IMG/VR virus record: IMGVR_UViG_3300019487_000021
DNA from: a virus
Taxonomy: Duplodnaviria > Heunggongvirae > Uroviricota > Caudoviricetes
Length of the DNA stretch: 64,000 bases
Reading direction: 5' to 3' (one strand)
Shown here: positions 234-56,727 of the stretch, piece after piece
Layout of the letters: every line of letters begins with the position of its first letter
How positions within the stretch are numbered: the stretch's first letter is position 1
Position numbers and translations under genes: made by a program
The notes under the pieces: generated by a model
Databases searched by the model: none
Seen by the model: the letters and a program-made list of their open reading frames with translations, nothing else
Told to the model about the DNA's origin: nothing

Positions 234-590
234 ATGTCAAGGTTACTTGCCGTGTTGCTGTTCTTTCCGGGCTTAGCATTTGCTGAGCAAATGACAGTAT
301 TCTACTGTCACAATGTTCTCATTCCTAAAGTTCAAATCACACACCACGCGCTAGCTGAGAAAATTCCTCGAACTGCGATTGTTGATCGAATTATTGATCG
401 ATTTTACAGTCACCGATTCTTTACGGATGCGCAAGCTACAGCAGTTAACGAAGCAATTGATCTTGCCATCAACATTGAAGTGTTAATTCCGTCGACTCTT
501 ACTTTGGAACAAGCAGACGCTTGGATCGATTCGTATATCCGATCCACGACTTGCACAACAGCAAAAGAAAGTCCGACGTATGGAGGATAA
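234..590 (+). CDS. secreted hypothetical protein (N-terminal signal peptide MSRLLAVLLFFPGLAFA)
   Basis: ORF with hydrophobic signal-like N-terminus; start chosen at first ATG inside the GTG-initiated ORF. Confidence 0.45.
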   Translation: MSRLLAVLLFFPGLAFAEQMTVFYCHNVLIPKVQITHHALAEKIPRTAIVDRIIDRFYSHRFFTDAQATAVNEAIDLAINIEVLIPSTLTLEQADAWIDSYIRSTTCTTAKESPTYGG

Positions 591-6182: not shown

Positions 6183-6329
6183 CACTATATGATCAATGGT
6201 AGTCGGCGCTGGAGCGCGGCGGTGTCTTATAAACACTGGAGATCGGCTAGATTGGCTGGAACGGGAGGGATCGTAACCCTCGGCTACTACCAACGAATAT
6301 AGTGATAGAACCATATAATAAGGATATAA

Positions 6330-26928: not shown

Positions 26929-27370
26929 CCAAATATGGGATCAATGGTATCTTGGTCTCGCAAAATATGTCTCAACAAAGTCAAAAGATCCATCAACAAA
27001 AACAGGAGCAGTGATCGTCCGTCCTGATAAGAGTTTGTGTTCAGTTGGCTTCAACGGTTTCCCTCAGAAGATGCCTGATCTTCCTGAGCTGTATGCTAAT
27101 AGAGAAGAGAAATATTCGAGGATCATCCATTGTGAGATGAACGCTTTGCTGTTTTCAAGAGATCAAACACTTGAAGATTACACACTTTACACATATCCTT
27201 TTATGAGTTGCGATCGTTGCTTCGAGCACATGGTTCAGAAGGGGATTATACGGTTCGTATATCCAAAGGCAACACCAGACCAACTGACACGATGGGGAGA
27301 CACTTTCGAACGCGTCCTCAGGTATGCTGAAGAGACTGGTGTTGAGATGGTTGAGTTAGAGATGGAGTAA
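26909..27370 (+). CDS. dCMP deaminase (zinc-dependent cytidine/deoxycytidylate deaminase)
   Basis: HCEMNAL and SCDRC zinc ligands; RBS AAGGAG. Confidence 0.8.
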   Translation: MEIAPIDQIWDQWYLGLAKYVSTKSKDPSTKTGAVIVRPDKSLCSVGFNGFPQKMPDLPELYANREEKYSRIIHCEMNALLFSRDQTLEDYTLYTYPFMSCDRCFEHMVQKGIIRFVYPKATPDQLTRWGDTFERVLRYAEETGVEMVELEME

Positions 27371-27868
27371 TGCGGTTATTGCAGTGCAGCTGAGAGGATT
27401 GTGAATACAATGCTCATCTAACCATTGTTGAATGAACACTTCTCCTCTTGATCGTTTGCACTTTGAGCAACCCGTTCCGTGCACATGATTGTTCGCTGTC
27501 ATTTCGAAAGACCCGTGTAACGGACACACTATAGTAACGCGCTTCATTTGTCCCAAATATTCAGTATTGCTACAATCGTAAAAATCACCGTGTCGCTTCC
27601 GTGCTTTTTCAATAAACTGATCTTTAGTGTGTCTATTTTTTGAATATTGCACTTGTTCTCGCTGTTCACGTGCACATTGGGGACAGCCGCTGCCGGTCAC
27701 ATGTGTACGCGCTTTCTGTTTGAAGATGCCGTGCTTTGAGCACCCAATATCAATCCAATCTTTGTAGGTAAAGGACAACGGTAGACCATTGTAATCATAC
27801 CTTTTAGTGTGAATTTCTGTTGCCCGTTTCAGAAATATTGCTCTATAATTGCTCATAAGCTTCTCCAT
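27356..27868 (-). CDS. Cys-rich zinc-finger protein, possibly homing-endonuclease-related
   Basis: Duplicated HG...GCPQC / HG..GCSKC modules; free-standing on the opposite strand between nucleotide-metabolism genes. Confidence 0.4.
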   Translation of the reverse strand: MEKLMSNYRAIFLKRATEIHTKRYDYNGLPLSFTYKDWIDIGCSKHGIFKQKARTHVTGSGCPQCAREQREQVQYSKNRHTKDQFIEKARKRHGDFYDCSNTEYLGQMKRVTIVCPLHGSFEMTANNHVHGTGCSKCKRSRGEVFIQQWLDEHCIHNPLSCTAITALLHL

Positions 27869-27921
27869 TGCAAGTAAAGACAGCTGCAATAGGTCTATAT
27901 AACAACAAGAAAGGTACACAC

Positions 27922-33352: not shown

Positions 33353-34168
33353 GTGGATCTCATCAACCCTGTAGAGTACGACGCCGTCGTAAACAAGTTA
33401 CGCACATTCTTTCGTGAGCGTTCATTCCTCGAAGTTCCTGTCCAGCACCGATTGAGTATCCTTGCGGCCTGTGAAGATCCACGAACCATCGGCACGTTCA
33501 GCTACGCAGGTGCGATGTGGCCGCTTCCACAGACTGGTCAGATGTGGTTAGAGTATGAACTACTTCACAATCCGTCCGCTAAAGGTTTTTACTGCATCAG
33601 CACCAGTTACCGCAATGAGCCAAATCCAATTCCTGGACGGCACGATTTGATCTTTCCGATGTTTGAATTCGAGACGCGAGGACAGCTAGAGGATCTCGAG
33701 CAACTTGAAATCGAACTGATCGCATATCTTGGTATTGCAAGACCCAGCGCCGTGCAGCGACTTGAGTATGCAAGAATTGCGGAATATTACAACACACAGA
33801 TTCTAACTGCTGAGCACGAGATCGAGATGCAGAGGGACTTTGGCCCTGCGATCTTACTCAAGAACTTCCCGCAGTACACGTCACCTTTCTGGAACATGCG
33901 AAAGGTCGGTGACAAAGCCAATAAGATTGACGTTCTACTGTACGGAATGGAAACAATCGGCTCTGCGGAGCGTAGTACCGACCCCGACGAGATGCGACAC
34001 TTGTTCCACACAATCTCCGATGGCATGTACGCAGACATTCTGTATTCACAGTTTGGCAAGGCACGGGTTGAGAAGGAACTCGAGGAATTTCTCTCGTTCG
34101 ACTTCTTCCCTAGATTCGGCGGTGGAATAGGTGTAACACGAATGATTCGTGCAATGAGGGCTGCTTGA
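33353..34168 (+). CDS. class II aminoacyl-tRNA-synthetase catalytic-core paralogue (EpmA/PoxA- or AsnA-like)
   Basis: Motif 2 YRNEPNPIPGRHDLIFPMFEFE; motif 3 FGGGIGVTRMIRAM; 271 aa with no anticodon-binding domain. Confidence 0.5.
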   Translation: MDLINPVEYDAVVNKLRTFFRERSFLEVPVQHRLSILAACEDPRTIGTFSYAGAMWPLPQTGQMWLEYELLHNPSAKGFYCISTSYRNEPNPIPGRHDLIFPMFEFETRGQLEDLEQLEIELIAYLGIARPSAVQRLEYARIAEYYNTQILTAEHEIEMQRDFGPAILLKNFPQYTSPFWNMRKVGDKANKIDVLLYGMETIGSAERSTDPDEMRHLFHTISDGMYADILYSQFGKARVEKELEEFLSFDFFPRFGGGIGVTRMIRAMRAA

Positions 34169-34644: not shown

Positions 34645-36153
34645 ATGTTTGGAATGAATTCCATAGTGGGTAAGAAATACTTCAAAGACGCACCGAAGGA
34701 TAGTCTGTTAGTCACATCTCGTTTTTTCACAATTCAAGGCGAGGGAATTTACCGCGGAATGCCGAGCTACTTCGTACGTTTAGCGAAATGCAATCTCGCA
34801 TGTTCATTCTGTTTTGTTGGCAACACAGAAATAGCAATGTCAAATAAACCACGCAAGAAAATCAAAGATGTCGTCGTTGGAGATGTTGTTGTCGCATATG
34901 ACGAAACAACTGGAACATTCGAGCCAGGAACCGTGTCACGTTTGTACCAATCTCAAACAGACGAACTCGTGTATATTCGCACAGCAACGGATCGAATCTA
35001 CTGCACGCCTGAACATCCGTTTTACGTTCGTGGTAAGGGTTGGATTAAAGCAATTGATTTACAACCGAGCGATGTTCTTCTACAAGCAGAATTTATTCAT
35101 AACGGTGAAATGGTCCATACCGTTGAGCGAATAGTGAAAGGCTCGGCTGCTTGGGTGCAACTTGCAGGATCAAAAGATGCTGCCTGTACAGTTTATAATT
35201 TTGAAGTTGATAAGTACCACAGCTATGTAGCGAACGGAAAGGTTGTACACAACTGCGACACGTACTTCGACTCTGGTGAGTATCAAACATACGACCAGAT
35301 CTTTGCCGACTGTGACAAAGAGATCGAAGCCTTCTATGCAAGGCGTAACATGAAAGTTCCAGCGTGGGCAAAGCATTGTGACGGATATTGGGAACCTACA
35401 GGAATAGATAATGCAATTGGCACTCCTCCAGAGGAATGGGTCGCTGAATCGAAACGTAAGGTTGTCCTAGTAATCACAGGCGGTGAACCAACACTTCAAA
35501 CGAACCTCACCGAATTCCTCGAACGAGCAAATAAGATTTTCTTTCACACACAAATCGAGAGTAACGGAACAGATCCTTTAACGTTACCAGATGCAACCAC
35601 GCTTGTGTGTTCACCAAAGTGTCTCGAGAAGAAGCAAGGCATGCAGAAAATCCCCGTGACGGCCTACTTCAGCGGCAACGATGAGCGTGGAGAAGGGATG
35701 TCAGGCCGGCCCTCATACGTTACGTACCACGAAGAGCCACGATACGTTGCCGTTCGATATCTTGAACCAAAGAAAGAGATGCTTGAACGTGCTGACTGTT
35801 TGAAGTTTGTTATGTGTGCTCCTGACGATGACCAAAGCCAGTTCACGCCATACAGTGAAGTTCCTCAGTGGGCACATGACTGGGCTGCAAACACTGGCAA
35901 GCCTGTGTTCGTATCGCCGATGAACATCTACCTGCAAGAGCCACAAAAGGCTAAGAACCTTCGTGCGCAAAAGCAGAGTGGTGAAATCACAATCGAAGAA
36001 CGGTCGACGGTCGACGAAGTCATTTCGTGGTGGGAAAACGATCTCCTTGATATGAAAAAGAATCACCGCAATCATGAATACGCAGCTGAATACTGCATGA
36101 GGCATGGATTTATCTTTCAAGTTCAACTACATTTGTTTGCGAGTCTTGCCTAA
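34645..36153 (+). CDS. queE: 7-carboxy-7-deazaguanine synthase QueE (radical SAM) interrupted by a mini-intein
   Basis: FTIQGEG, CNLACSF[intein]CDTYF, VLVITGGEPTL. Splicing would restore CNLACSFC (CxxxCxxC). Confidence 0.8.
   Translation: MFGMNSIVGKKYFKDAPKDSLLVTSRFFTIQGEGIYRGMPSYFVRLAKCNLACSFCFVGNTEIAMSNKPRKKIKDVVVGDVVVAYDETTGTFEPGTVSRLYQSQTDELVYIRTATDRIYCTPEHPFYVRGKGWIKAIDLQPSDVLLQAEFIHNGEMVHTVERIVKGSAAWVQLAGSKDAACTVYNFEVDKYHSYVANGKVVHNCDTYFDSGEYQTYDQIFADCDKEIEAFYARRNMKVPAWAKHCDGYWEPTGIDNAIGTPPEEWVAESKRKVVLVITGGEPTLQTNLTEFLERANKIFFHTQIESNGTDPLTLPDATTLVCSPKCLEKKQGMQKIPVTAYFSGNDERGEGMSGRPSYVTYHEEPRYVAVRYLEPKKEMLERADCLKFVMCAPDDDQSQFTPYSEVPQWAHDWAANTGKPVFVSPMNIYLQEPQKAKNLRAQKQSGEITIEERSTVDEVISWWENDLLDMKKNHRNHEYAAEYCMRHGFIFQVQLHLFASLA
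34810..35253 (+). mobile_element. mini-intein (148 aa, no endonuclease domain) in QueE
   Basis: Begins with Cys, block B TPEHPF, ends VVHN followed by a +1 Cys. Confidence 0.75.
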
Positions 36154-36682: not shown

Positions 36683-36712
36683 CTTCTGTACGGTGTGTAT
36701 TTGACTGCAAGT

Positions 36713-37102
36713 TTAACGTGACATCGACGTAGCGAGAAGTAAAGAAGTCACTCTTTCGTGATGTTGGCAAAAGAACAAGATCTGGACTGCCAGGCACTGG
36801 TTCACCACGGATCTTCTCTGGATCGACATCCCGATTACCTTCTTCTGCATCGGATCAACGACACCGATGAGTTTGACTTTAGATGTATCATGAACGAACC
36901 ATTGGTAGTTAGAGCCGCCAGGCATTGATTTCAAAAGCCCAAGTTGGGAAGCCTTTGCGTAGGCATTACTTAACTCTTGGCGCTGTTCTGCGTACAGTTC
37001 AGTCTTTGGAACAAAGTTCACTCTACTCAGTGCGGAGTACAGACTGTTAAAGTCTCCTGAATATGCGGTGGAGGATAGAGAGTTCATTTCTTTGAGTTTC
37101 AT
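36713..37102 (-). CDS. hypothetical protein
   Basis: Minus ORF, ATGA-coupled to the next gene. Confidence 0.4.
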   Translation of the reverse strand: MKLKEMNSLSSTAYSGDFNSLYSALSRVNFVPKTELYAEQRQELSNAYAKASQLGLLKSMPGGSNYQWFVHDTSKVKLIGVVDPMQKKVIGMSIQRRSVVNQCLAVQILFFCQHHERVTSLLLATSMSR

Positions 37103-37464
37103 CTATCACCTCGCGCCTCGGCAACAGTTCGATTTATTCGTTCTGTTACGTCTCTTAGTTGTCTTATCTTGGAGAAGTTCTCATACACATAGAAGTTACT
37201 CATCTTCACCAATTTGTCGTGTATGGATCTTGCACTGGCCTCTGGATTGCCATATGTATTCACTACCATCAACTTGATTTGTGGTGAAACACGGTCAACA
37301 TTGCCCCACGGAATACCTGTCGTATCCAAATACTCTTGTGTCATGGCGTTGTGGAGTTCATTAAACATAGTGTAAAGATGCTCAATCCGATGACACAACG
37401 CCCTACGTCGCTGTTCGGATCCATACTTGATAGCACTTTTCGGGTTGAGTAGCGTTCTATTCAT
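37099..37464 (-). CDS. hypothetical protein
   Basis: Minus ORF. Confidence 0.4.
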   Translation of the reverse strand: MNRTLLNPKSAIKYGSEQRRRALCHRIEHLYTMFNELHNAMTQEYLDTTGIPWGNVDRVSPQIKLMVVNTYGNPEASARSIHDKLVKMSNFYVYENFSKIRQLRDVTERINRTVAEARGDR

Positions 37465-37530
37465 GCGAATATTTACGCGTTGAAGAACCCTTTCAACAAA
37501 ATATATACTTCTACTATAAGGAGAAATTTA

Positions 37531-37626
37531 GTGGGACAGCAAAAGAAGCTAGTTTATCGTGCAGGACTGATTCCGTACGTTGTCGAAGGAGGCAATGTTC
37601 GGATGATGTTTATGCGTCCGTCGAAC
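37531..37626 (+). pseudogene. 5' fragment of a NUDIX gene (VGQQKKLVYRAGLIPYVVEGGNVRMMFMRPS)
   Basis: About 70% identical to the N-terminus of the NUDIX gene at 38452; lies on the other side of the GIY-YIG gene. Confidence 0.5.
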
Positions 37627-38423
37627 TAGATCGCTAAATACTTCCACACAAATCCGCCTGCAGTTTTAGAACGTCCTTTGCAACACTCTAAAAGAGTGTT
37701 TGGATGCTTATTAACACTTTTTGCTGCTTGCACCATCGATGGAAATGTTGCAACATAGACACCGTCTTTGGTGTATTGCAGCACCGGTCGAAAATTTTTA
37801 CCTTTGTGTGGATTTGTCCATGTTTTCTTCGTTGGATTCCAACTGTGCAGGGATACATCTTTCCATGTCCATCGAAATCCACTAACGGAGCGAATTTTAT
37901 TGTTGACACATCTAGAAAGAGAACCTGTGTCGATACCTTTAATTGTGTCTCGTACTTGTTGGAGAGTACTGAAGGAACACACATATTGTCCACTAAGAGT
38001 ATATTGGTCATATCCTCTCGAATGATTGATCTGTCGTCGTCGGCTTTGTTCTCGCCATTGTTCAGAACGAATGTGACCAGAAACTCCCTCACCCCCATCA
38101 GTCATGTTACATAGTATTCCTGTTTTGTTATCTCTTCGTCCATATCGTCTTATTAAAGCCTTTTCAATGTCAAAGGCTTGTTGTTCACTACGACACACGT
38201 AACGTTGTATGTGAACTTTGCCCGCAGTTCGAAGCACCTTTCTGATTTTATTCTTTAACAGTTGATTATTATGAGTTGTCGTTTCATATAGCCTATCATG
38301 ATACCAAACGTGTTGATACATTCGATCGCCTGTTCCCTTACCAACATAAAATGGTTGATTCATAGTTGGATCGATGAGTTTGTACACATAGAAGCGACGA
38401 GTTGAGGGTAACACAATATTCAT
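37626..38423 (-). CDS. GIY-YIG homing endonuclease with C-terminal NUMOD-like repeats
   Basis: YVYKLIDPTMNQPFYVGKGTGDR...R..Y...NMTDGGEG; GFRW and GFVWKY repeats. Confidence 0.8.
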   Translation of the reverse strand: MNIVLPSTRRFYVYKLIDPTMNQPFYVGKGTGDRMYQHVWYHDRLYETTTHNNQLLKNKIRKVLRTAGKVHIQRYVCRSEQQAFDIEKALIRRYGRRDNKTGILCNMTDGGEGVSGHIRSEQWREQSRRRQINHSRGYDQYTLSGQYVCSFSTLQQVRDTIKGIDTGSLSRCVNNKIRSVSGFRWTWKDVSLHSWNPTKKTWTNPHKGKNFRPVLQYTKDGVYVATFPSMVQAAKSVNKHPNTLLECCKGRSKTAGGFVWKYLAI

Positions 38424-38451
38424 ATATACTCCAGCTCGGAGGTATCTATTT

Positions 38452-38878
38452 ATGCAGAAAAAGTTAGTATATCGTGCTGGCTTAATTCCTTACTATGTGG
38501 AGTCAGATGGCACAATAATGATGATGTTCATGAAACCAAGCAACCCTCTTTATGGAGGTTTTTTTTTTAATTCAGCTAGCGAAAGGTAAGGTGGAAGAAG
38601 GTGAGACCAATCTTTCTGCAGCGTTACGCGAAGCGCAAGAAGAAATTGGCCTCTTCCGAGGCAATGTATTGCGAACGGAAGAGGTTGGGACATTCATGGG
38701 AAGAACAACCGTGTTTGTGTCGAAGATTCGAGACAAAGGTATGTTTGGAGAACCGAGTTTCGAAACTGCCGGAACCTGTTGGCTTTCTGCTGAAGAGTTT
38801 GATCAGATTGGTCGAGATTTGCACAGACCCGTCGTCAGGGCCGCCTACAAGAAAATAGTCGAGCTAGAAGATGAGTGA
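38452..38878 (+). CDS. NUDIX hydrolase interrupted by a +1 frame change in a T10 run (38558-38567)
   Basis: MQKKLVYRAGLIPYY..NPLYGGFFF in frame 1, then LAKGKVEEGETNLSAALREAQEEIGL (Nudix box) in frame 2. Confidence 0.55.
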
Positions 38879-39287
38879 GAACTTTCAGTTGTGTTTACCT
38901 GCAGAGGAACTGGAGTTCTACTTTCGTTTACGAATTCAACAAGTACTCATCGATGTGCGTGACGCACATCGTGACATAGCACAATCTCATCTACTACCAG
39001 TGTTTGCGAGCACTGTTGAAAACTTCGTTTCTCAAGCTATAAGCAACGGTGTAATTTCAGAAGGCCGGGTTGGCACGTTCCAGCTCGAACAAAAGAGATA
39101 TCATTACAGCAAGTTCACTTTTGATAATGGCTTCCACGTGTATAGTGGAAGCCATCAACACATGAGCGATGATTGGTCAACGAACGAGCCTCACAACTAC
39201 TTACAGGTTAAATACCGTATCCGAGAACATTTCCCGGAAGGTGAAATCACTTCAATACAGGATGGGAGTGGAATTACTAATGAGTGA
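38871..39287 (+). CDS. hypothetical protein
   Basis: ORF. Confidence 0.4.
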   Translation: MSENFQLCLPAEELEFYFRLRIQQVLIDVRDAHRDIAQSHLLPVFASTVENFVSQAISNGVISEGRVGTFQLEQKRYHYSKFTFDNGFHVYSGSHQHMSDDWSTNEPHNYLQVKYRIREHFPEGEITSIQDGSGITNE

Positions 39288-39711
39288 AAACAAACTAGCG
39301 GGATTGATTCCGTATCGAGTGAAGGAAAACGGTACCATCAAGATGCTATTCATGCGCCCTGAAGAGCCAAATCCAAACTACAATCGTGGTGACAAATACG
39401 AGATCGCGAAAGGTAGTGTTGAGGAGGGTGAAAGTCTGGAACAAGCTGCAATTCGTGAAGCAACCGAAGAGCTTGGATTGTTCAAGGGCAACATCATCAA
39501 AATCGAGGAGCTTGGACAGTTTCCAATCAACCTGACTGTGTTCATTGCCAAAATCAAGGACAAAGACTTGTTCGGCGACTACGACGAAGATGAGGTTGAC
39601 AAAACGAAGTGGATGACAGCAGAAGATTTCGAGACGAAAGGAATCGTGTTGCAACGAACTATTGTTCTGGCCGCTCAACGGAAGATTCGGAAGCTGGAAG
39701 ATTTGACTTAG
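39286..39711 (+). CDS. NUDIX hydrolase (intact paralogue)
   Basis: Nudix box GSVEEGESLEQAAIREATEELGL. Confidence 0.75.
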   Translation, partial: ENKLAGLIPYRVKENGTIKMLFMRPEEPNPNYNRGDKYEIAKGSVEEGESLEQAAIREATEELGLFKGNIIKIEELGQFPINLTVFIAKIKDKDLFGDYDEDEVDKTKWMTAEDFETKGIVLQRTIVLAAQRKIRKLEDLT

Positions 39712-39953
39712 TTCGAATACGAAACAGTCTGTCCCGCACCTCTGAGCGTTTTGCGAAAGGAGTCGTATTTTTCTGATGGCATAACATTGACCCAATAGCC
39801 AGCTGAATCGGCCTTTGATACCAAGTGTGACCGTAACAGTAGAATAGATTTTACAAGCAGGCGCATTTCTGCTCGTAGTTCCTCAAGTCGAATCACGTCA
39901 GGATGATCTAGAGGCGGATTTGGTGCTGTTTCGATGACTTGAGTGAGTTTCAT
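39708..39953 (-). CDS. hypothetical protein
   Basis: Minus ORF convergent with the NUDIX gene. Confidence 0.35.
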   Translation of the reverse strand: MKLTQVIETAPNPPLDHPDVIRLEELRAEMRLLVKSILLLRSHLVSKADSAGYWVNVMPSEKYDSFRKTLRGAGQTVSYSN

Positions 39954-40007
39954 AGGACTATTTACCTCGCGAATCGATAAATAGCTCCAACGATTAAGGA
40001 GTTACCT

Positions 40008-40643
40008 ATGAACATCGATCTGTGGCGCAAACTAGCTGGTATCACCGAACGTGTCAATGACGACGATGACGAAGACATGTCTTCCGCTGAACGTGCATTG
40101 GCACAGAAAGCAGACACAGATCTTAGGAAGCGTGGTATCAACGTTGAGAAGGATCTAGCTGCTGCAGAGAAGAAAGAAGAAGCAAAGAAAAAGAAGGTTG
40201 CAGCAGCAAAACCAGCTGCAAAGCAGGAACCTAAAGAGGAATCTAAAGAGGAACCGAAGCAAAAAGGTTCTGCTAAGAAGCGTCCTCAAGCACTCGCTTG
40301 GCTCAAAAGTCATCCAAGTGCAACGCGTGGTGAGTTCATGAAAGCTGCTGAGGGTTGGGGCATGTCACGCGCCTATGCCGGTTCTCATTACTACCTACTT
40401 CGTAAACGCGCTCGTGGTTCAGATGTAAAAGAAGCATGGATGTTGTTCCATCCTTCAGTTCCTCGTTTCGCTCTTGCAGAAAACCGTCAGTTCAATCGCT
40501 ACCAATGGATCAGTTTGGAAGATGGTAAGGGTTTGGAACCTTTGTGTTTCTTCAACGAACAGGAAGCACTTGACGTTGCAAAGTACATGAGTGAATATCA
40601 AAGCCAAGTTGCTGTTGTCGAGAGATTAGACGCCGACGTATAA
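40008..40643 (+). CDS. hypothetical Lys/Glu-rich protein
   Basis: ORF, RBS AGGAG. Confidence 0.45.
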   Translation: MNIDLWRKLAGITERVNDDDDEDMSSAERALAQKADTDLRKRGINVEKDLAAAEKKEEAKKKKVAAAKPAAKQEPKEESKEEPKQKGSAKKRPQALAWLKSHPSATRGEFMKAAEGWGMSRAYAGSHYYLLRKRARGSDVKEAWMLFHPSVPRFALAENRQFNRYQWISLEDGKGLEPLCFFNEQEALDVAKYMSEYQSQVAVVERLDADV

Positions 40644-40711
40644 TTCTCTTGATGTGGCCTAGGCTCGCCCCACAATAAAACTCCGCGCCCCCAACGACAA
40701 GGAGAATAATA

Positions 40712-41179
40712 ATGGGCAAGAAATTCGTTTCCACAAAAACTTACAAAGAGATTGCACCAGTTGCTTATCGTCAATGGCGCGACGATGGAAACTGTCAATG
40801 GGTTCATGGTTACGCTCTATCGTTTCACTTTGAATTTGAATGTGATGACCTTGACGCTCGCAACTGGTGCGTCGATTTCGGTGGTTTGCGTCCTCTGAAA
40901 GACTTACTCGAGGAGTGGTTCGATCACAAACTTCTCGTCGCTCAAGATGATCCTCATCGTGAGGCATTACTCAACCTAGACAAGCTAGGAATTGCCCAAG
41001 TAACGGAAGTTGAAAAGACTGGTTGCGAGGGTCTATCTGAGTTCTTGTACAACTACGTCAATGATTGTTTCCTAAAAGATTATGGCTGGAGCAATCGTGT
41101 GTGGTGTTGCAAGGTTGAAGTTCGTGAAAACGAAAAGAACAGTGCAATGCGCGTTGGACATCGTCCAGAGGCAGAATAA
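40712..41179 (+). CDS. queD: 6-carboxy-5,6,7,8-tetrahydropterin synthase (QueD/PTPS family)
   Basis: CQWVHGYALSFHFEFE (Cx3HGH-type zinc and catalytic site). Confidence 0.7.
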   Translation: MGKKFVSTKTYKEIAPVAYRQWRDDGNCQWVHGYALSFHFEFECDDLDARNWCVDFGGLRPLKDLLEEWFDHKLLVAQDDPHREALLNLDKLGIAQVTEVEKTGCEGLSEFLYNYVNDCFLKDYGWSNRVWCCKVEVRENEKNSAMRVGHRPEAE

Positions 41180-41511
41180 ATGGAACTTCACTCTTCCCTC
41201 ATGCAACGTACAATCGGTGTGAATGGTGTGGAACTCGTCGAGACGGTCTACTATTCGAACAAATTCATACAACACCACCCGAAGGTGACAACATGTTATG
41301 ATCTCAAAACAATGCGGTGCAACAATGGGACATTATGAATGGGTTTGTCGGCACTGTTTTGCTGTGTTGGCAAATCCAGCGTTTGATCATAGCCAAGAGA
41401 TCATCAACTCGTGTAAGGATAAAAAGTGTCCGCACATAAGTCAGAAGACAGTGAAGACTCGGCAGCAAGCTTGGAAAGGTATAAATACTCCTAAATCATA
41501 GGAGATTACCC

Positions 41512-42852
41512 ATGAGTTTCGGTCTGATTGCAAAAGCGATCTTCCTGACGGAAGTTGCTGATCAAGAAAAAGCGCGCATTCTTCAGAAAGTGCAACACAA
41601 GTTGATGCATCAGTACAGCATCGATGCTTCTCTCCGCGCCCTTTATGACTTTTTTGTCGGCATGGATCCATATGCCGGCTCCGCTTCTTCCCGTCTGCCT
41701 GTCGAAGATGAACGCGAGTTCCTCCAAGACATGGTTGCTCATGGTTATGATCTTCATGGTGGCTATGCGGAGAATACAAAGTTCTGGAATGGTGTTCTGA
41801 CGCCACAGGAGTATTCTATCATCACAAGCCACCCTGCTCGCTCAGAAGAAAATGAAGAAGAAGCTGATGGGTGGCGAACGAACATCCGTCACCGTGCTCA
41901 CGATCTTGTTACGCAACGATTCCAACGAGACCAAGAAGGTGAAGAGTACGAAGAAGATACAGAAGCATTCGAACCAGAAAGTCATCCACTATATCCTGAC
42001 CTCGACAAGACCAAAGACCTTCCACCAGAAATACGTCGAGACGACCCAAAGTTCAATGAAGTCCCATATGCTTCTCTGGAGCAAGAAGAACAAGCTGTCA
42101 CCCCTCATGACTATCAAAAGTGGATGCGTGTAATGCATGAAGAAGGGGCTGCACGTGGCATTAACATCAACAACAAACGCAGCTTCGAAGACCTAGCATT
42201 TGAAATGCTTGACAATGACCCTAAGATGGATTCAATCGGTTCAGATGAGCGAACAAAGTCGAACATTGTCAACATCCTTTGGCAGCAGCATCGTGCAATG
42301 ATTGCCCAACAAAAAGCTCAACAATCATTCAAGAGCATGATGCGTCCGGAAGAGAATGAAGAATACGAAGAGGTTAGTGGTGCCTTCCAACAAGCACAAG
42401 ACGCGTGTCTCGATCACTGGCGTGGTACGGTTAAGGGCACTCCAAAAAATCCATATGCAAAAGGAACGAAGCGTCATGCAGACTGGGAGAAGGGATGGGA
42501 AGCAGCTGAACACGGCGTTTGGGACAAGCGACATGTCTCAGCATCAGAAGATGAGGAAAGTGAGTTTGGTCAACACTTCCGAATGAGCCAAGGCTTGCCA
42601 CCAAGCTATGAGAACGAAGAAGCGATCAGCCCACTGGTGAAGCTTAAGCCTGTTCAGCGAATGTTCAAGCTGATTTGGAAGAACGGTCGAGAAGAAACGA
42701 TCTCTGGTAATGATATTGCAGATGCGTTTTCAAAGGCTGGTTATGGTGCACGAGCAATTGCTTCACTAGATCACTATCAAGAAGTTTACAATCAGACAGG
42801 GAAGGTACAACGACCTGCACCCCTAGGGCGAAACGTTGACACAATGGCATAA
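41512..42852 (+). CDS. acidic hypothetical protein (446 aa)
   Basis: Long ORF. Confidence 0.45.
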   Translation: MSFGLIAKAIFLTEVADQEKARILQKVQHKLMHQYSIDASLRALYDFFVGMDPYAGSASSRLPVEDEREFLQDMVAHGYDLHGGYAENTKFWNGVLTPQEYSIITSHPARSEENEEEADGWRTNIRHRAHDLVTQRFQRDQEGEEYEEDTEAFEPESHPLYPDLDKTKDLPPEIRRDDPKFNEVPYASLEQEEQAVTPHDYQKWMRVMHEEGAARGININNKRSFEDLAFEMLDNDPKMDSIGSDERTKSNIVNILWQQHRAMIAQQKAQQSFKSMMRPEENEEYEEVSGAFQQAQDACLDHWRGTVKGTPKNPYAKGTKRHADWEKGWEAAEHGVWDKRHVSASEDEESEFGQHFRMSQGLPPSYENEEAISPLVKLKPVQRMFKLIWKNGREETISGNDIADAFSKAGYGARAIASLDHYQEVYNQTGKVQRPAPLGRNVDTMA

Positions 42853-53069: not shown

Positions 53070-53141
53070 GGGTTCATGATGTAACGGCTAGCATAGGAGG
53101 CTTTTACCCTCTCTGTCAGAGTTCGAATCTCTGTGAACCTA
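53070..53141 (+). tRNA. tRNA-Lys (anticodon UUU)
   Basis: Acceptor GGGTTCA/TGAACCT, D-arm ATGT..GCAT, anticodon arm GGAGG-CTTTTAC-CCTCT, T-arm CAGAG-TTCGAAT-CTCTG. Confidence 0.8.
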
Positions 53142-53487
53142 CTTAGGATTTTACAGAATGACAAGTTTACTTGGTTCCACGACTAACCAAACATTAAACT
53201 GTCTTAGCCTTAGCAACCAAGTCACATGCGGCACAGCCGCCCCCCAGAAGGTCAAGTTACTTGGTGGACCAAATCGATGTTGTAATCGATGTATTATTAC
53301 CTTGTGCATAGTCGGTGACGTAATAGAAGCGCCATATTGACCACCCAAGTGACCACCCAAGGTATGATGGTCGAGCGGAAGGTGAAGATAATCAGCGAGA
53401 TCTGCTGCGAAGTCACCGAGACTATCCAAATCACCTAGGTCGTTTGTAATTTCGAAAAGTTTCATGTAGTTATTTAGTGTTCTTTGT

Positions 53488-53550
53488 TCCGGGAGAGGCG
53501 TCGTGGTGACAGCCGCGATGACGGTGGTTCAAATCCAGCCGCCAGGACCA
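53488..53550 (+). pseudogene. degenerate tRNA paralogue (cannot form an acceptor stem)
   Basis: Shares GGGAGAGGCG with the adjacent tRNA-Asn and has the T-loop-like GGTGGTTCAAATCCAGCC, but no complementary 3' acceptor strand. Confidence 0.45.
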
Positions 53551-53552
53551 AT

Positions 53553-53630
53553 TGTGGGAGAGGCGCCAGGGTGGCAACCGCTCCGCTGTTAACGGAGACT
53601 AGACAGGTTCGATTCCTGTTCCCACAGCCA
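53553..53630 (+). tRNA. tRNA-Asn (anticodon GUU), irregular D region
   Basis: Acceptor TGTGGGA/TCCCACA, anticodon arm CTCCG-CTGTTAA-CGGAG, T-arm ACAGG-TTCGATT-CCTGT, G plus CCA. Confidence 0.65.
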
Positions 53631-53812
53631 TATTTTATGGCTCCTAATTTCAATAGGAGCCATATTGGAGTACGAAGACAGGTCGAAAACGAAAGTATCA
53701 TGGGAATATTTATAAGAGCCTATGCTCGCGGCCCATTGATACTTCGCGTTGTGGTTGCCGACTGCAGGTTTGTTCACATTCATGAGTGGCTCCTTGAAGA
53801 ACGCACCTTACC

Positions 53813-54052
53813 CTAGTTATCTTGATTTGGCAACTTGAATGAGATATCGTATGATGCAAACGAAGCACGAATCCGCTCCAGCGCCTCGGAGGGCCAGTCT
53901 TTTGTTGCTTGTTCCAAAGCGATGGCTAGCCGGGCTAACTTAAGCCCACTGCACCTTGCTTTCTCTATCTCGTTTTGAATGCAATTCGGATGGTTGCACT
54001 CACGGATATTGTTGACGGCAGTAGCGATCAGCACGTCGAACCATCTTTCCAT
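53813..54052 (-). CDS. small hypothetical protein
   Basis: Minus-strand ATG preceded by GGGAGGTGTCG. Confidence 0.45.
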   Translation of the reverse strand: MERWFDVLIATAVNNIRECNHPNCIQNEIEKARCSGLKLARLAIALEQATKDWPSEALERIRASFASYDISFKLPNQDN

Positions 54053-54087
54053 CGACACCTCCCGCGGAAACCCACGAGAGGTATTTA

Positions 54088-54180
54088 GGGTTATTCTTCG
54101 GAATCGCGATAAAGAGCATCGAACGTTTTGTCGTCGAACGTTTAATCAGGTTGATCAGGGTTCGAGTCCCTGGCGACCCA
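54088..54180 (+). ncRNA. tRNA-like remnant (T-arm plus acceptor-like 3' end; 5' part does not fold)
   Basis: CAGGG-TTCGAGT-CCCTG then GCGACCC-A. Candidate 5' strand GGGTTAT lies 93 nt upstream. Internal direct repeats CGAACGTTT x2 and ATCAGG x2. Confidence 0.3.
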
Positions 54181-54279
54181 CAACTCGAGGAGATGCAATA
54201 AATAATGATATGATACTCCAAGAAATTTTCCAACAAATCAGTGATGTGTGGGCTAATTGGAAACGTAAGTGTCCGTTTT

Positions 54280-54351
54280 GCTCCAACGGCGCAGAGGAAG
54301 CGCACTCGCTTGGTAAGCGAGCGGTCCTAAGTTCGAGTCTTAGTTGGAGCA
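54280..54351 (+). tRNA. tRNA-Thr (anticodon GGU)
   Basis: GCTCCAA/TTGGAGC, D GCGC..GCGC, CTCGC-TTGGTAA-GCGAG, CTAAG-TTCGAGT-CTTAG. Confidence 0.75.
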
Positions 54352-54445
54352 CATACAATGCTTGGATAGTTCAGTCTGCTTTACTGCCCCCTGGGTTTGG
54401 TTGGATTGATACGTTTTTCACCTCACCCGCGGAGCAAAGATTTAT

Positions 54446-54522
54446 CCTAGAGTAGTTCAGCCTGGCAGAACGCTCGCCCGATTAGCGAGATGTCGGTGGT
54501 TCAAATCCATCCTCTAGGACCA
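54446..54522 (+). tRNA. tRNA with anticodon loop CCGAUUA (GAU/Ile if canonical positions; C33 unusual)
   Basis: CCTAGAG/CTCTAGG, D GTTC..GAAC, CTCGC-CCGATTA-GCGAG, GGTGG-TTCAAAT-CCATC, A plus CCA. Confidence 0.6.
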
Positions 54523-54531
54523 AGATTCAAT

Positions 54532-54604
54532 TGTTCCGTATTTTAATTGGCAGACTGCATGCTTGATAGGCGTGTCGGTGTAGGTTCGAGTCCTACCGGA
54601 ACAA
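54532..54604 (+). tRNA. tRNA, anticodon loop UUGAUAG (GAU/Ile?), irregular D-arm
   Basis: TGTTCCG/CGGAACA, CATGC-TTGATAG-GCGTG, GTAGG-TTCGAGT-CCTAC. Confidence 0.5.
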
Positions 54605-54722
54605 CATAAATACAAGTTTATGGTAGTGAAAATTTTGTAAAGGAAATTCTCAAGATGTTTGGATGGACACTACAGGTGGTCCGAGATCACGAAGCTCGGC
54701 ATCGGCAAGAACATCCACCAAC

Positions 54723-54796
54723 GGACCGCAAGCATTAAGGTGATGCAGTAGGCTCTTAACCTACAGAACACGGGCCAGTACCGTGGCGGTCTACCA
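54723..54796 (+). tRNA. tRNA-Lys (anticodon CUU) with a non-canonical T-loop GCCAGUA
   Basis: GGACCGC/GCGGTCT, D GCAT..ATGC, GTAGG-CTCTTAA-CCTAC, CACGG-GCCAGTA-CCGTG, A plus CCA. Confidence 0.6.
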
Positions 54797-54804
54797 AAAT
54801 TCTT

Positions 54805-54879
54805 GCTTCGTAAACTTTGACGGTGAAGCCCACTCCTGTAAAGTGGCGGAAGTAGGTTCGAATCCTACACGGAGCTCCA
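54805..54879 (+). tRNA. tRNA-Thr (anticodon UGU; C33)
   Basis: GCTTCGT/ACGGAGC, CCACT-CCTGTAA-AGTGG, GTAGG-TTCGAAT-CCTAC, T plus CCA. Confidence 0.6.
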
Positions 54880-54979
54880 AGTTGTTGCGAAGGACACTAC
54901 GGTTACTTCATTCACTTTGCGTAATGGCTGGAGGCGGAAGCCTCCGTTTCCGTATCCGACTTTTAACTCAACTTTGATT

Positions 54980-55057
54980 GGGGCATTAGCTCAGCTTTGG
55001 GAGAGCGCTACGTTTGCACCGTAGAGGTCGTCGGTTCGATCCCGACATGCTCCACCA
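54980..55057 (+). tRNA. tRNA-Ala (anticodon UGC)
   Basis: GGGGCAT/ATGCTCC, D GCTC..GAGC, CTACG-TTTGCAC-CGTAG, GTCGG-TTCGATC-CCGAC, A plus CCA. Confidence 0.8.
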
Positions 55058-55572
55058 ATCTAAACAAGGAGACGACCATGCTTAAGGAAGGAGTTTGCAG
55101 CAATTTGTGACTAACACAGATGAATCTGGTCGTTTCATGTGATGTTGGACGAAGTAACTATGTGTGGGATAATGTTTCATTTTGGAGAATGAACCATGTA
55201 TAACCAATGTGTATCATTGCTTTTGTGCTTGTTCGGTTCATCAGTAGCACGCTATTGCTGTGTCACTGGATGACAGAGAAAGGATGGCTTAAACCATCGT
55301 AACATCTCAACGAACTGGTCGTAGATAGTCGTAGATACTCGTAGATACTCAATTCGTAAAAGTGAAGCCTGGATCTTTCTCGACAAGAAAGACACGGGCT
55401 ACATCTTTTGTGACGAGACGGACAACTTCCCACGAGCGCTTGTGGTTGATCTTGCCCACACTCTGTTTCACATGATACGAAAGGATAATCGTTTCAATGA
55501 ACCTGATGATGTTTTGAGAGCACTTGCTCGTGCTCGTTTGCAAGATCAAGCTGTAAACATCATCGACAATTT

Positions 55573-55646
55573 GCTCCCATAGTTCAGTGGTAGAATGCGA
55601 TCTTGGTAGGATTGAGACACAGGTTTGATTCCTGTTAGGAGCACCA
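55573..55646 (+). tRNA. tRNA-Thr (anticodon GGU), second copy
   Basis: GCTCCCA/TAGGAGC (one mismatch), CGATC-TTGGTAG-GATTG, ACAGG-TTTGATT-CCTGT, A plus CCA. Confidence 0.6.
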
Positions 55647-55810
55647 TGAAAGTAATCGAGCCAGGCCACGTGTATGAACTCCAACACCTTGAGAGTGAAG
55701 GCGTTGAACGTTTGACGTTTATCAAACGATCGTCAGGTGCAGTTGACTATGGCGATCAAGAAGTGAATACGAAATTGAACTTCTTCCGACTGGTCGGGAC
55801 GGACATGTGA
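55646..55810 (+). CDS. small hypothetical protein (54 aa)
   Basis: ATG overlaps the tRNA CCA end; RBS AGGAG lies inside the tRNA 3' end. Confidence 0.35.
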   Translation: MKVIEPGHVYELQHLESEGVERLTFIKRSSGAVDYGDQEVNTKLNFFRLVGTDM

Positions 55811-55814
55811 TTGT

Positions 55815-56030
55815 ATGACACTCAAAGAAAAGATTGCAATGTACGAGGGGCTGCTTCACGACATCCAAATGTATCGTGAGGTTACGCTTGACGGCGAGAA
55901 AGTGAAACAGCTGCTCGATAACATTGGCGCTTGGAGTTACGCGCATCGTGTTGGCAATGGAATGCTAACAGATCGCCAACAGAAGCGGTTGATTACTGCT
56001 AAGTTCAAAAAGTTGCGAGAAGTGACCTAA
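55815..56030 (+). CDS. hypothetical protein
   Basis: ORF. Confidence 0.4.
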   Translation: MTLKEKIAMYEGLLHDIQMYREVTLDGEKVKQLLDNIGAWSYAHRVGNGMLTDRQQKRLITAKFKKLREVT

Positions 56031-56059
56031 GTGATTTTTCCACGATAGAGGTATCGAAA

Positions 56060-56410
56060 ATGGCAAAGTTTAACCGCAGTAAGATTCAGGTGTATCAGTA
56101 TGATCATCTTTCAACATCAGATTTTGAGAGCATCTCTCTGGATGATATGATCGCAAAGTTGCAGAAGCTTCGCGATAGGCATGGCGGCGAAGGTAGGTTC
56201 AATCTTGAGATTGAGTATTACGACAACACCGACGTCAAAATTGAGGTGTCATCCTATCGAGAAGAAACAGACGAGGAACTCTTGCATCGCGTGACGGTGC
56301 ACAAGGCTTTAGAAAAGCACAAGCGTGATGATGCGAAGGCGCGTAAGGCCTTCCGTGAGGAACACGATCGTAAGGAATTTGAGCGTCTTTCGAAGAAGTT
56401 CGGAAAATAA
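56060..56410 (+). CDS. hypothetical protein
   Basis: RBS GAGGTATCGAAA. Confidence 0.45.
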   Translation: MAKFNRSKIQVYQYDHLSTSDFESISLDDMIAKLQKLRDRHGGEGRFNLEIEYYDNTDVKIEVSSYREETDEELLHRVTVHKALEKHKRDDAKARKAFREEHDRKEFERLSKKFGK

Positions 56411-56415
56411 TTAAC

Positions 56416-56489
56416 GGGTCTGTGATGTAATGGTAGCCTGCGGCTCTTACAAGGCTGATGCGACAGTTCGATTCTGTCCGGACCTACCA
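56416..56489 (+). tRNA. tRNA-Val (anticodon UAC), irregular D-arm
   Basis: GGGTCTG/CGGACCT (two GU pairs), CGGCT-CTTACAA-GGCTG, GACAG-TTCGATT-CTGTC, A plus CCA. Confidence 0.5.
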
Positions 56490-56499
56490 TGGAGGTTGT

Positions 56500-56652
56500 A
56501 TGCGCGATGACCGAGACTTTCCTTTGCTACTCACTTGCTGGGATCTGAATCAGCAGCGCGAAGTAGATTACGTGCCGTACATACGGTGGTGTTCCCACAT
56601 CATTCTCTTTGTCGGCAACCAGTGGTACCGTCTGGACAAATCTGCTCTGTAG
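56500..56652 (+). CDS. small hypothetical protein
   Basis: RBS GGAGG. Confidence 0.35.
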   Translation: MRDDRDFPLLLTCWDLNQQREVDYVPYIRWCSHIILFVGNQWYRLDKSAL

Positions 56653-56653
56653 T

Positions 56654-56727
56654 GCCCCTTTAGTTTAGTGGTAGAACACAACTCTCGTAAAGTTGGGACG
56701 TCAGTTCGATTCTGACATGGGGCTCCA
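56654..56727 (+). tRNA. tRNA-Thr (anticodon CGU)
   Basis: GCCCCTT/ATGGGGC (one mismatch), GTTT..GAAC, CAACT-CTCGTAA-AGTTG, GTCAG-TTCGATT-CTGAC, T plus CCA. Confidence 0.65.

Follow-up and report, generated by a model that had tools for sequence, protein, structure and literature searches.

A GIY-YIG endonuclease cassette that appears to carry a slippage-prone T tract into a NUDIX gene of a jumbo phage

The 64,000-nucleotide stretch of viral DNA analyzed here (hereafter the window; IMG/VR record IMGVR_UViG_3300019487_000021, Caudoviricetes) carries, between positions 37480 and 39711, a free-standing gene for a GIY-YIG homing endonuclease next to a NUDIX gene, NUDIX1, whose reading frame changes within a run of ten T (T10). 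Comparison with related loci led us to favor, with modest confidence, a reading in which the endonuclease gene travels as a cassette bearing a slippage-prone T tract that is indifferent to the frame of its target, the NUDIX-A gene, expression of which would proceed through slippage or on/off switching. An earlier note, made from the sequence of this DNA, had described the endonuclease gene, a duplicated NUDIX fragment and the frameshift; beyond that description, the tract forms part of the endonuclease cassette, and most related cassettes likewise have it out of frame. The window is part of a jumbo phage genome of roughly 350 kb, the longest contig with the exact endonuclease protein measuring 351,809 bp. 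Searched by megablast against 50,697 phage records, positions 36700-40700 gave no DNA match, and at the protein level the closest phage records were jumbo phages of Xanthomonas, Ralstonia and Stenotrophomonas (among them Xoo-sp13, XacN1 and RsoM2USA), with ca. 40-45% amino acid (aa) identity.

The locus begins with a 5' stump of NUDIX-A (37531..37629, plus strand) consisting of a GTG, 31 codons and a TAG. It reads VGQQKKLVYRAGLIPYVVEGGNVRMMFMRPSN followed by the stop codon, and ends after ...MRPSN, 14 nt before the position equivalent to the tract. Upstream of its GTG lie an AAGGAG and a promoter-like site, TTGAAG-N18-TATACT (37480..37509, plus strand), which would now drive the stump only and run antisense into the endonuclease gene. 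The latter (37626..38423, minus strand) encodes 265 aa, and its stop codon overlaps that of the stump (CTAG). A divergent spacer of 28 bp (38424..38451) holds both ribosome-binding sites (RBSs) and a -10-like TATACT (38425-38430), which belongs to a promoter-like site for NUDIX1 (38402..38430). NUDIX1 then starts with ATG and codons 1-36 (38452..38558, plus strand), ending ...PLYGG, and is followed by the tract. The open reading frame (ORF) from 38452 comprises 45 codons before a stop, and the remaining NUDIX domain (38569..38878, plus strand; Pfam NUDIX 2.1e-9) continues in the +1 frame, so that NUDIX1 is not a single uninterrupted ORF. The arrangement in the earlier note, a minus-strand GIY-YIG gene between a duplicated NUDIX fragment and a frameshifted NUDIX gene, was thus borne out by ORFs and domain evidence; the frame change does fall in a run of ten T, located at 38559-38568 (plus strand) and not at 38558-38567. 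A second NUDIX gene, NUDIX2 or NUDIX-B, does follow intact, with its ATG at 39280 rather than the proposed 39286 (39280..39711, plus strand; 143 aa; Pfam NUDIX 1.7e-12). Both proteins carry the Nudix box GX5EX7REUXEEXGU, as GKVEEGETNLSAALREAQEEIGL in NUDIX1 (38585-38653) and GSVEEGESLEQAAIREATEELGL in NUDIX2, and both score above the cut-off of PF00293.

T10 is the sole homopolymer of at least 8 bases in the 64 kb, the next longest being 7, and a first-order Markov model predicts ca. 0.14 T runs of 10 or more. Long homopolymers are depleted in the window as a whole, which has no other run of 8 or more; several A runs of at least 8 would be expected, according to our own arithmetic from the first-order Markov transition frequencies, done without a computational tool. 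The earlier note had offered two explanations for the frame change, an assembly error or a slippage-prone site. An artefact, with a true T9 and an intact gene of 141 aa, would be in keeping with homopolymers being a classic site of indel errors and with the consensus nature of the assemblies. However, of the six metagenomic contigs that hold the exact endonuclease protein, the four retrieved (JGI 3300019458, ENA ERZ27251177, Logan SRR7811987 and Logan SRR7811943) all equal the window across 37480-39711, T10 included, in spite of originating from three assembly pipelines (MEGAHIT for the ENA contig, and different runs for the two Logan assemblies) and two genotypes. Three of them are 100% identical over 7-21 kb, and the JGI contig differs by 3 single-nucleotide polymorphisms (SNPs) and an indel of ca. 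30 nt. Moreover, the consensus accuracy of Illumina data easily extends to a run of 10 nt, and related tracts deviate from frame in both directions in six of nine cases, unlike a systematic error. T10 is accordingly treated as the true consensus and an assembly error is very unlikely, leaving the slippage-prone site as the part of that claim that stood. Simulated tract lengths of T6, T9 and T12 gave a single ORF of 140-142 aa and T11 did not; the frame would therefore be restored by T9, as had been suggested, but not by T11. The ca. 30-nt indel between the window and the JGI contig lies at 41438-41469, just upstream of the RBS of a 446-aa ORF (41512-42852); over 20 kb, the two genotypes were seen to differ in nothing but this indel and the 3 SNPs.

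A tract of T9-T14 was found at the same codon position, after a conserved Gly-Gly and before Q[ILV]AKG, in nine of the 11 loci at which the genomic context of this endonuclease subfamily was retrieved. Besides the window, these are L013, L014, L049, L050, L051, L053-L056 and L141 (L and P numbers designate loci and proteins, respectively). The tract is in frame in L013 (T9), L014 (T12) and L049 (T12), and out of frame in the window (T10), L056 (T10), L050 (T13), L141 and L142 (T13), L053 (T14) and L055 (T14); L051 and L054 have no tract and an intact gene. No T tract was found in the ca. 32 readable alleles without this endonuclease subfamily, taken from IMG/VR, GenBank phages and L140, about 30 of which lack any endonuclease match and three of which (L020, L023 and L018) have a more distant GIY-YIG gene nearby. 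Likewise, FFF or FFFF occupied the tract position in only two of 120 protein homologues, both endonuclease-linked. The 3' parts of the nine tract alleles are only 53-77% identical in aa sequence, the position being conserved across diverged homologues, and these 3' parts are polyphyletic: the nearest neighbors of P0020 (81-83%) have no tract, and P0020 is only 58-64% identical to NUDIX1 and P0001. Combined, these comparisons point to the T tract as a hallmark of the endonuclease cassette, mere hitch-hiking of a mutational hot spot being a further alternative for the linkage.

The length of the tract modulo 3 looks unconstrained. Six of the nine tracts are out of frame, four requiring the loss of one nucleotide and two the gain of one. 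Four further independent out-of-frame N-terminal fragments (P0180, P0181, P0182 and P0184) were recovered with an N-terminal profile, to give a tally of 10 out of frame to 3 in frame, near the 2:1 ratio that an unconstrained length modulo 3 would produce; the search that yielded these fragments was biased towards short ORFs. The fixed frame relationship expected of a programmed slippage site was not observed (three in frame, four -1 and two +1). The lesion of the window could also be a four-nucleotide AATT insertion, whose deletion likewise restores the frame, but an interrupted longer tract with one extra T agrees just as well with the alignment to L014 and L055. Searches for other lengths of the window allele by a pattern of exact flanks and variable gap gave no hits in IMG/VR and the JGI metagenome collection; degenerate T-tract/QxAKG patterns were matched once, by chance, in a contig of high GC content (L052), and not at all in IMG/VR. 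At the position of the tract, P0063, P0087 and four 'GGFTY' homologues, all with intact NUDIX, read GG-F-[YVT]-Y, and such alleles could be former T tracts stabilized by point mutations.

A recurrent frameshift beside an intact paralogue raises the possibility that NUDIX1 is a dead pseudogene: invasion would have brought a mutation-prone tract that went from T9 to T10, NUDIX2 would cover the function and the tract would have no role of its own. We consider this rather unlikely, if still to be taken seriously. It agrees with the consensus being out of frame in all four contigs, with the intact, conserved paralogue 400 bp downstream, with homopolymers being mutational hot spots, and with the inconsistent shift required across alleles; furthermore, no in-frame 141-aa variant appeared among the hits of a search of 5.8 billion protein clusters. 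The state of the alleles argues otherwise. In the nine tract alleles with DNA, both halves are open, the Nudix box is recognizable and there is a single lesion at most, so that neither the further lesions nor the relaxed constraint of a pseudogene were seen; counting the fragments, ten independent out-of-frame alleles each have this one lesion only. The box of L056 is a variant with an acidic insertion that also occurs in intact homologues such as P0063. The ratio of nonsynonymous to synonymous substitution rates (dN/dS) downstream of the tract was 0.14-0.21, with 0.15-0.18 for NUDIX1 versus L013 and L140, and it was as low between out-of-frame alleles (L055-L141, 0.21; L053-L141, 0.18) as between the in-frame pair L013-L140 (0.19). 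The tract also stays pure T although neighboring synonymous sites are near-saturated (proportion of synonymous differences, pS, 0.6-0.9) and against codon preference, TTT being the minor Phe codon in this phage (0.42). Finally, only one NUDIX gene was seen at the locus in most of the related phages examined, with no visible back-up copy.

AlphaFold2 predicted a confident Nudix fold for the T9-restored NUDIX1 (predicted local distance difference test 92.4; predicted template-modelling score 0.87), and the best Foldseek matches of the model were Ap4A hydrolases and RppH (template-modelling score ca. 0.74, E = 1e-9). The residues encoded by the tract lie in its one low-confidence loop. The model bears on a further explanation, that the gene is deliberately split into an N-terminal peptide of 45 aa and a C-terminal protein of 108 aa (from ATG 38552) that assemble, as in phage genes split by endonucleases. 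An ATG in the downstream frame, 7 nt before the tract, is indeed present in the window and L056, both T10. However, no RBS precedes ATG 38552, in the T13 and T14 alleles (L050, L053, L055 and L141) the downstream half lacks a start codon, and the break falls in a loop within the β-sheet core of the model. A split of this kind is hence extremely improbable, and the internal ATG was rejected as an independent start for its missing RBS and its absence from other out-of-frame alleles.

The endonuclease belongs to a distinct subfamily, with homologues at 45-63% identity, and consists of a catalytic N-terminal domain and two probable NUMOD-like modules. Matches to Pfam LEM-3_GIY-YIG (7.9e-5; 23.1 versus a gathering score of 27 bits) and NUMOD1 (2.8e-4; 21.5 bits, cut-off 22.8) fell below the curated cut-offs, and an I-HmuI NUMOD-like match had 3.7e-3. 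PHROG 314, 'homing endonuclease', matched at 1e-11, and PHROG 20162 and PHROG 314 both match residues 210-263. The subfamily profile matched the solved GIY-YIG domain proteins 9u75/9u7u at 2e-13 and the UvrC GIY-YIG domain weakly. Residues Y12, Y14, Y26, G28, R34, H38, E87 and N106, including motifs YVY (12-14) and YVGKG (26-30), are invariant in an alignment of 14 members, and a ...TAGGF.W motif occurs twice in the window protein and four times in longer homologues. On these grounds the protein has a GIY-YIG catalytic domain, and cleavage by it is predicted. A gene for a homologous endonuclease (46-63% identity) divergently adjoins the NUDIX gene at all ten other loci, with a spacing of 28 bp in L014, as in the window, and 25 bp in L049; the spacers of L013 and L014 also hold -10-like hexamers. 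Its occurrence is sporadic: present beside NUDIX at 11 loci, it is missing from the same site in L140, L008/L009, L011/L012 and most of 33 IMG/VR loci, and profile scans of GTDB genomes and IMG/VR recovered distant GIY-YIG genes only, none of this subfamily. In L013, the closest endonuclease-bearing relative, an internal deletion has reduced the endonuclease to a remnant of 85 aa (295-552, minus strand) that joins the GIY-YIG N-terminus to the last AGGFVWKY module, beside a NUDIX gene that keeps its in-frame T9; the remnant represents a decay stage of the homing cycle. More distant GIY-YIG genes lie directly upstream of NUDIX in L010 (= L020; 5110-5952, plus strand) and L023 (2533-2838, minus strand), the former with 28% identity and in the opposite orientation, and both without a T tract. 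Endonuclease genes thus seem to insert preferentially, as a general rule, at the start of this NUDIX gene.

The origin of the stump became apparent from L140, the endonuclease-free arrangement that had been sought among relatives, which has both NUDIX paralogues. Its order is a 220-aa gene and a 146-aa gene on the minus strand, NUDIX-A starting with GTG, genes for 106 and 81 aa, NUDIX-B, and a homologue of the 211-aa protein of the window; ancestrally, the lineage of the window phage has NUDIX-A and NUDIX-B downstream of a minus-strand gene pair. Its NUDIX-A protein (P0003) is 75% identical to NUDIX1, its NUDIX-B is 82% identical in aa to NUDIX2, and its 220-aa protein matches a 129-aa ORF of the window. 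Since L140 has both paralogues and no endonuclease gene, NUDIX-A and NUDIX-B are ancestral and outside the event, NUDIX2 being the ancestral paralogue. The stump does repeat the N-terminus of the gene at 38452, as the earlier note had stated, with 77% aa and 66% nucleotide identity (59/90) over the first 31 codons; a relative's NUDIX protein matches it by tblastn with E = 5e-11, so that chance does not explain the resemblance. At the DNA level the copies differ by 34%, too much for a duplication in place; the duplication is thus old or of foreign origin. The L140 block TATATACTTCT..ATAAGGAGAA.TTT.GTG aligns with the region before the stump and not with that before NUDIX1, and the 5' end of L140 nudA matches the stump by blastn (86% over 36 nt), with no match to the 5' end of NUDIX1. 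The stump is therefore the 5' end of the resident NUDIX-A at its native promoter-like site. By contrast, the 3' part of L140 nudA matches NUDIX1, but only from 38579, 11 nt past the tract (80.7% over 280 nt). The incoming DNA thus comprises the endonuclease gene, the spacer and an ATG-initiated, replacement NUDIX 5' end, and the 3' part of NUDIX1 probably derives from the resident gene.

On the left, the cassette joins the resident gene precisely at the endonuclease stop codon, the resident gene being cut after codon 32. The earlier note had regarded the duplication as a typical homing footprint. This did not hold, given that ordinary homing leaves no duplication and that no stump was found at the ten other endonuclease loci within flanks of mostly 1.5-6 kb (only ca. 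300 bp at L013); an illegitimate left junction appears to be the explanation instead. On the right-hand side, homology between the window and L013 is unbroken from inside the endonuclease gene, through the spacer, to the NUDIX 5' end (76% over window 38230-38733). L013, with its endonuclease remnant and T9, shares 67% identity with L140 on the upstream side of the tract and 85% on the downstream side (Fisher p = 7e-5), blastn homology between the two beginning at the 3' end of the tract. For the window versus L140 the figures are 65% and 78%, and homology resumes 11 nt past the tract. A mosaic boundary of the kind left by co-conversion thus lies next to the endonuclease gene, with the T tract as the putative right-hand limit of the cassette. 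Nearest-neighbor ranking of the 29-aa N-terminal segment was discarded as proof of shared ancestry: it was too noisy, the segment of P0020 grouping with neither NUDIX1 nor P0001, and for this reason the case for the breakpoint relies on the DNA of L013 and L140.

A homing mechanism that would account for the locus can be proposed. Three landmarks, namely the L013 breakpoint, the window breakpoint and the end of the stump, converge near codons 32-40, which would place cleavage and crossover there, and the endonuclease is predicted to cut endonuclease-free NUDIX-A within ca. 20 bp of these codons. Free-standing endonucleases cut at a site removed from their own gene, with co-conversion of the intervening DNA (PMC2988022); here, the DNA between cleavage site and endonuclease gene would always be co-converted. 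The right end of the break would be repaired through NUDIX homology, and the left end, with no homology beyond the endonuclease gene, would have been joined illegitimately at the endonuclease stop codon, leaving the stump. The T tract, free of G and C and replacing two codons (usually Asp-Lys), would be the cleavage-resistant, immune form of the target, kept for the benefit of the endonuclease whatever the NUDIX frame.

Expression of NUDIX1 could then be rescued by slippage. On runs of 9 A or T, slippage of bacterial RNA polymerase adds up to 6 extra nucleotides (PMC5009743), polymerase slippage has a threshold of ca. 7 T and a strong poly(T) bias (PMC6260861), and rescue of frameshifted homopolymer genes by polymerase slippage is known (PMC4256274, PMC3017870). 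The tracts, T10 here and T9-T14 in 8 relatives, all reach the length of about 9 A or T taken as the threshold for a slippage site (PMC5009743, PMC6260861). With at least 9 T the template would be homopolymeric over the whole RNA-DNA hybrid, RNA polymerase would slip to generate mixed U-lengths, and the U9 or U12 fraction would encode full-length NUDIX1 of 141 or 142 aa. Replication slippage would add T9 and T12 subpopulations (on/off), ribosomal slippage would contribute less, and NUDIX2 would buffer any loss of NUDIX1. We propose that both halves stay intact and under purifying selection because slippage still yields some full-length protein. In a stronger version, the tract is an adaptive part of the cassette, a length-flexible self-immunity allele maintained by selection for the endonuclease, with the NUDIX gene surviving through polymerase slippage; this version we advance only tentatively.

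The tract could also be kept for another role in nucleic acids, as the U tract of a terminator or attenuator or, read as an A tract, as an upstream regulatory region of the endonuclease gene. A scan flagged the weak hairpin CCTCTTTATGGAGG (38545..38558, plus strand), directly 5' of T10, as terminator-like together with the tract, and in eight of the nine tract alleles a hairpin with an energy of -4.6 to -10 kcal/mol is possible immediately ahead of U9-U14 (L056 only -1.5). The 28-bp spacer, moreover, requires the endonuclease promoter to sit in the co-travelling NUDIX 5' segment. The U tract itself would suit a terminator very well. However, the hairpin of the window, with only 5 pairs and -5.5 to -6.2 kcal/mol, does not exceed the stability of shuffled sequence (z = 0.27), and hairpins are equally present in endonuclease-free alleles, as a consequence of coding P-S..G-G. 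Between the tract and the endonuclease start no σ70-like minus-strand promoter was found, and the ca. 136 nt separating the tract from the endonuclease start codon are far for an UP element. We judge a regulatory role improbable.

Several observations weigh against the proposed slippage-prone cassette. The endonuclease context was available from a small sample of loci, two of which, L051 and L054, are endonuclease-linked yet have no tract. The differing shifts required are unlike a classical programmed site and fit better with tolerated or adventitious slippage. Tract length was uniform in each population (T10 in the four contigs; T13 in both L141 and L142, one SNP apart and from two samples), as read from consensus sequences, and phase variation was thus not observed. 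The four assemblies with T10 may come from related samples of one study. The low dN/dS could largely predate a recent inactivation, and slippage-dependent expression of NUDIX1 is something we infer from the DNA. Lastly, the 5'/3' contrast between the window and L140 is modest (p = 0.012) and identity between the window and L013 is flat (72% versus 74%), which makes the right-hand junction less certain in the window than in L013.

Between both NUDIX genes lies an ORF of 138 aa (38871..39287, plus strand) with no Pfam or PHROG match. It overlaps each neighbor by the same 8-nt motif, ATGAGTGA (38871-38878 and 39280-39287), which links NUDIX1 to the 138-aa ORF and the latter to NUDIX2; both the 138-aa ORF and NUDIX2 start with MSEN. 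The shared overlap may be a recombination scar or a common signal for translational coupling. For the upstream 121-aa protein no relatives were found in IMG/VR. Further upstream, a radical-SAM (QueE-like) gene of 502 aa (34645-36153, plus strand) contains an intein (Pfam Intein_splicing 2.9e-10, PT-HINT 6.9e-14), so that another selfish element lies no more than 2 kb from the endonuclease gene; L008 and L010 have intein-free QueE-like versions of 297-298 aa. A PTPS/QueD homologue is encoded at 40712-41179, a class-II aminoacyl-tRNA-synthetase-like protein of 271 aa at 33353-34168, and a DUF723 protein at 27356-27919 (minus strand); DUF723 proteins adjoin GIY-YIG genes in relatives such as L056. 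Together, the QueE, QueD, aminoacyl-tRNA-synthetase-like and DUF723 genes point to a 7-deazaguanine (queuosine-precursor) neighborhood around the NUDIX genes. The window has eleven tRNA genes (85-159, 6198-6292 and 53070-56727), with a cluster of nine at 53-57 kb; the gene for tRNA-Ile(tat) (6198-6292) has an unusual length of 95 nt and may be interrupted.

Free-standing homing endonucleases are known to shuffle phage genomes. The locus described here offers a sequence-level picture of what seems to be a whole cassette, with a spare start of the target gene and a datable stump left after faulty homing, tied to a homopolymer that repeatedly breaks the frame of the target without killing the gene. 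To our knowledge, the self-immunity of homing endonucleases and its cost to the neighboring gene are known for a few T4 cases only. If the tract is indeed an immunity allele and slippage restores expression, homing and recoding would be linked, with a selfish element imposing transcriptional recoding on its target, and the 13 or more alleles (T9-T14) would provide a natural set for measuring slippage by phage or host polymerases. As a warning for annotation, where a jumbo phage has a split NUDIX ORF beside a GIY-YIG gene, the split is not an assembly error and the ORF need not be a pseudogene.

The components, a Seg-like endonuclease, co-conversion and homopolymer slippage, are each of a known kind; we know of no description of their combination. 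Homopolymer tracts make contingency loci phase-variable in genes of Haemophilus, Neisseria and Campylobacter, and Campylobacter phages have poly-G tracts. As in those loci, a hypermutable mononucleotide repeat lies here in the 5' third of an ORF, where it can switch expression, and its length differs between related genomes (T9-T14). Unlike them, no length heterogeneity within a population was seen in the consensus sequences, and the gene encodes an enzyme of nucleotide metabolism of a lytic jumbo phage rather than a surface or receptor-binding protein.

The closest parallel to the endonuclease itself is with the Seg endonucleases of phage T4 (SegF, SegG and SegB), which also have a GIY-YIG domain, combined with NUMOD-type modules such as those probably present here, are encoded by independent genes next to conserved genes, and are present or absent among related phages. 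They cleave at some remove from the gene, and the DNA in between is obligatorily co-converted (PMC2988022, PMC2330249), a feature that is predicted for the window endonuclease, and mosaic boundaries occur at the nuclease gene in both cases (PMC10448857). In contrast to T4, the segment co-converted here would supply the target gene with a defined new 5' end that has a promoter-like site and an RBS of its own and ends in a conserved poly-T tract, and one junction appears illegitimate and left a promoter-bearing resident stump. Slippage-rescued genes (Buchnera and Blochmannia poly(A) genes, Citrobacter tssM, Shigella spa13/mxiE and Thermus dnaX) share with NUDIX1 a run of at least 9 A or T in the coding region, a broken genomic frame and conserved ORF halves (PMC5009743, PMC4256274, PMC3017870, PMC6260861). 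Their product arises by realignment of RNA polymerase, as is proposed for NUDIX1; their tracts are not linked to a mobile element and most keep a fixed frame relationship, whereas the present tract travels with an endonuclease cassette and seems to vary at random in its length modulo 3. Finally, in phage genes split by endonucleases (Aeh1 nrdA/mobE, and the 'fractured genes' with split inteins; PMC2677866), an endonuclease gene also sits inside a conserved gene with pieces on both sides. Here, however, split inteins are absent, the piece on the left is not a complementary half but a diverged and redundant duplicate, and the functional copy would have been rebuilt by the cassette.

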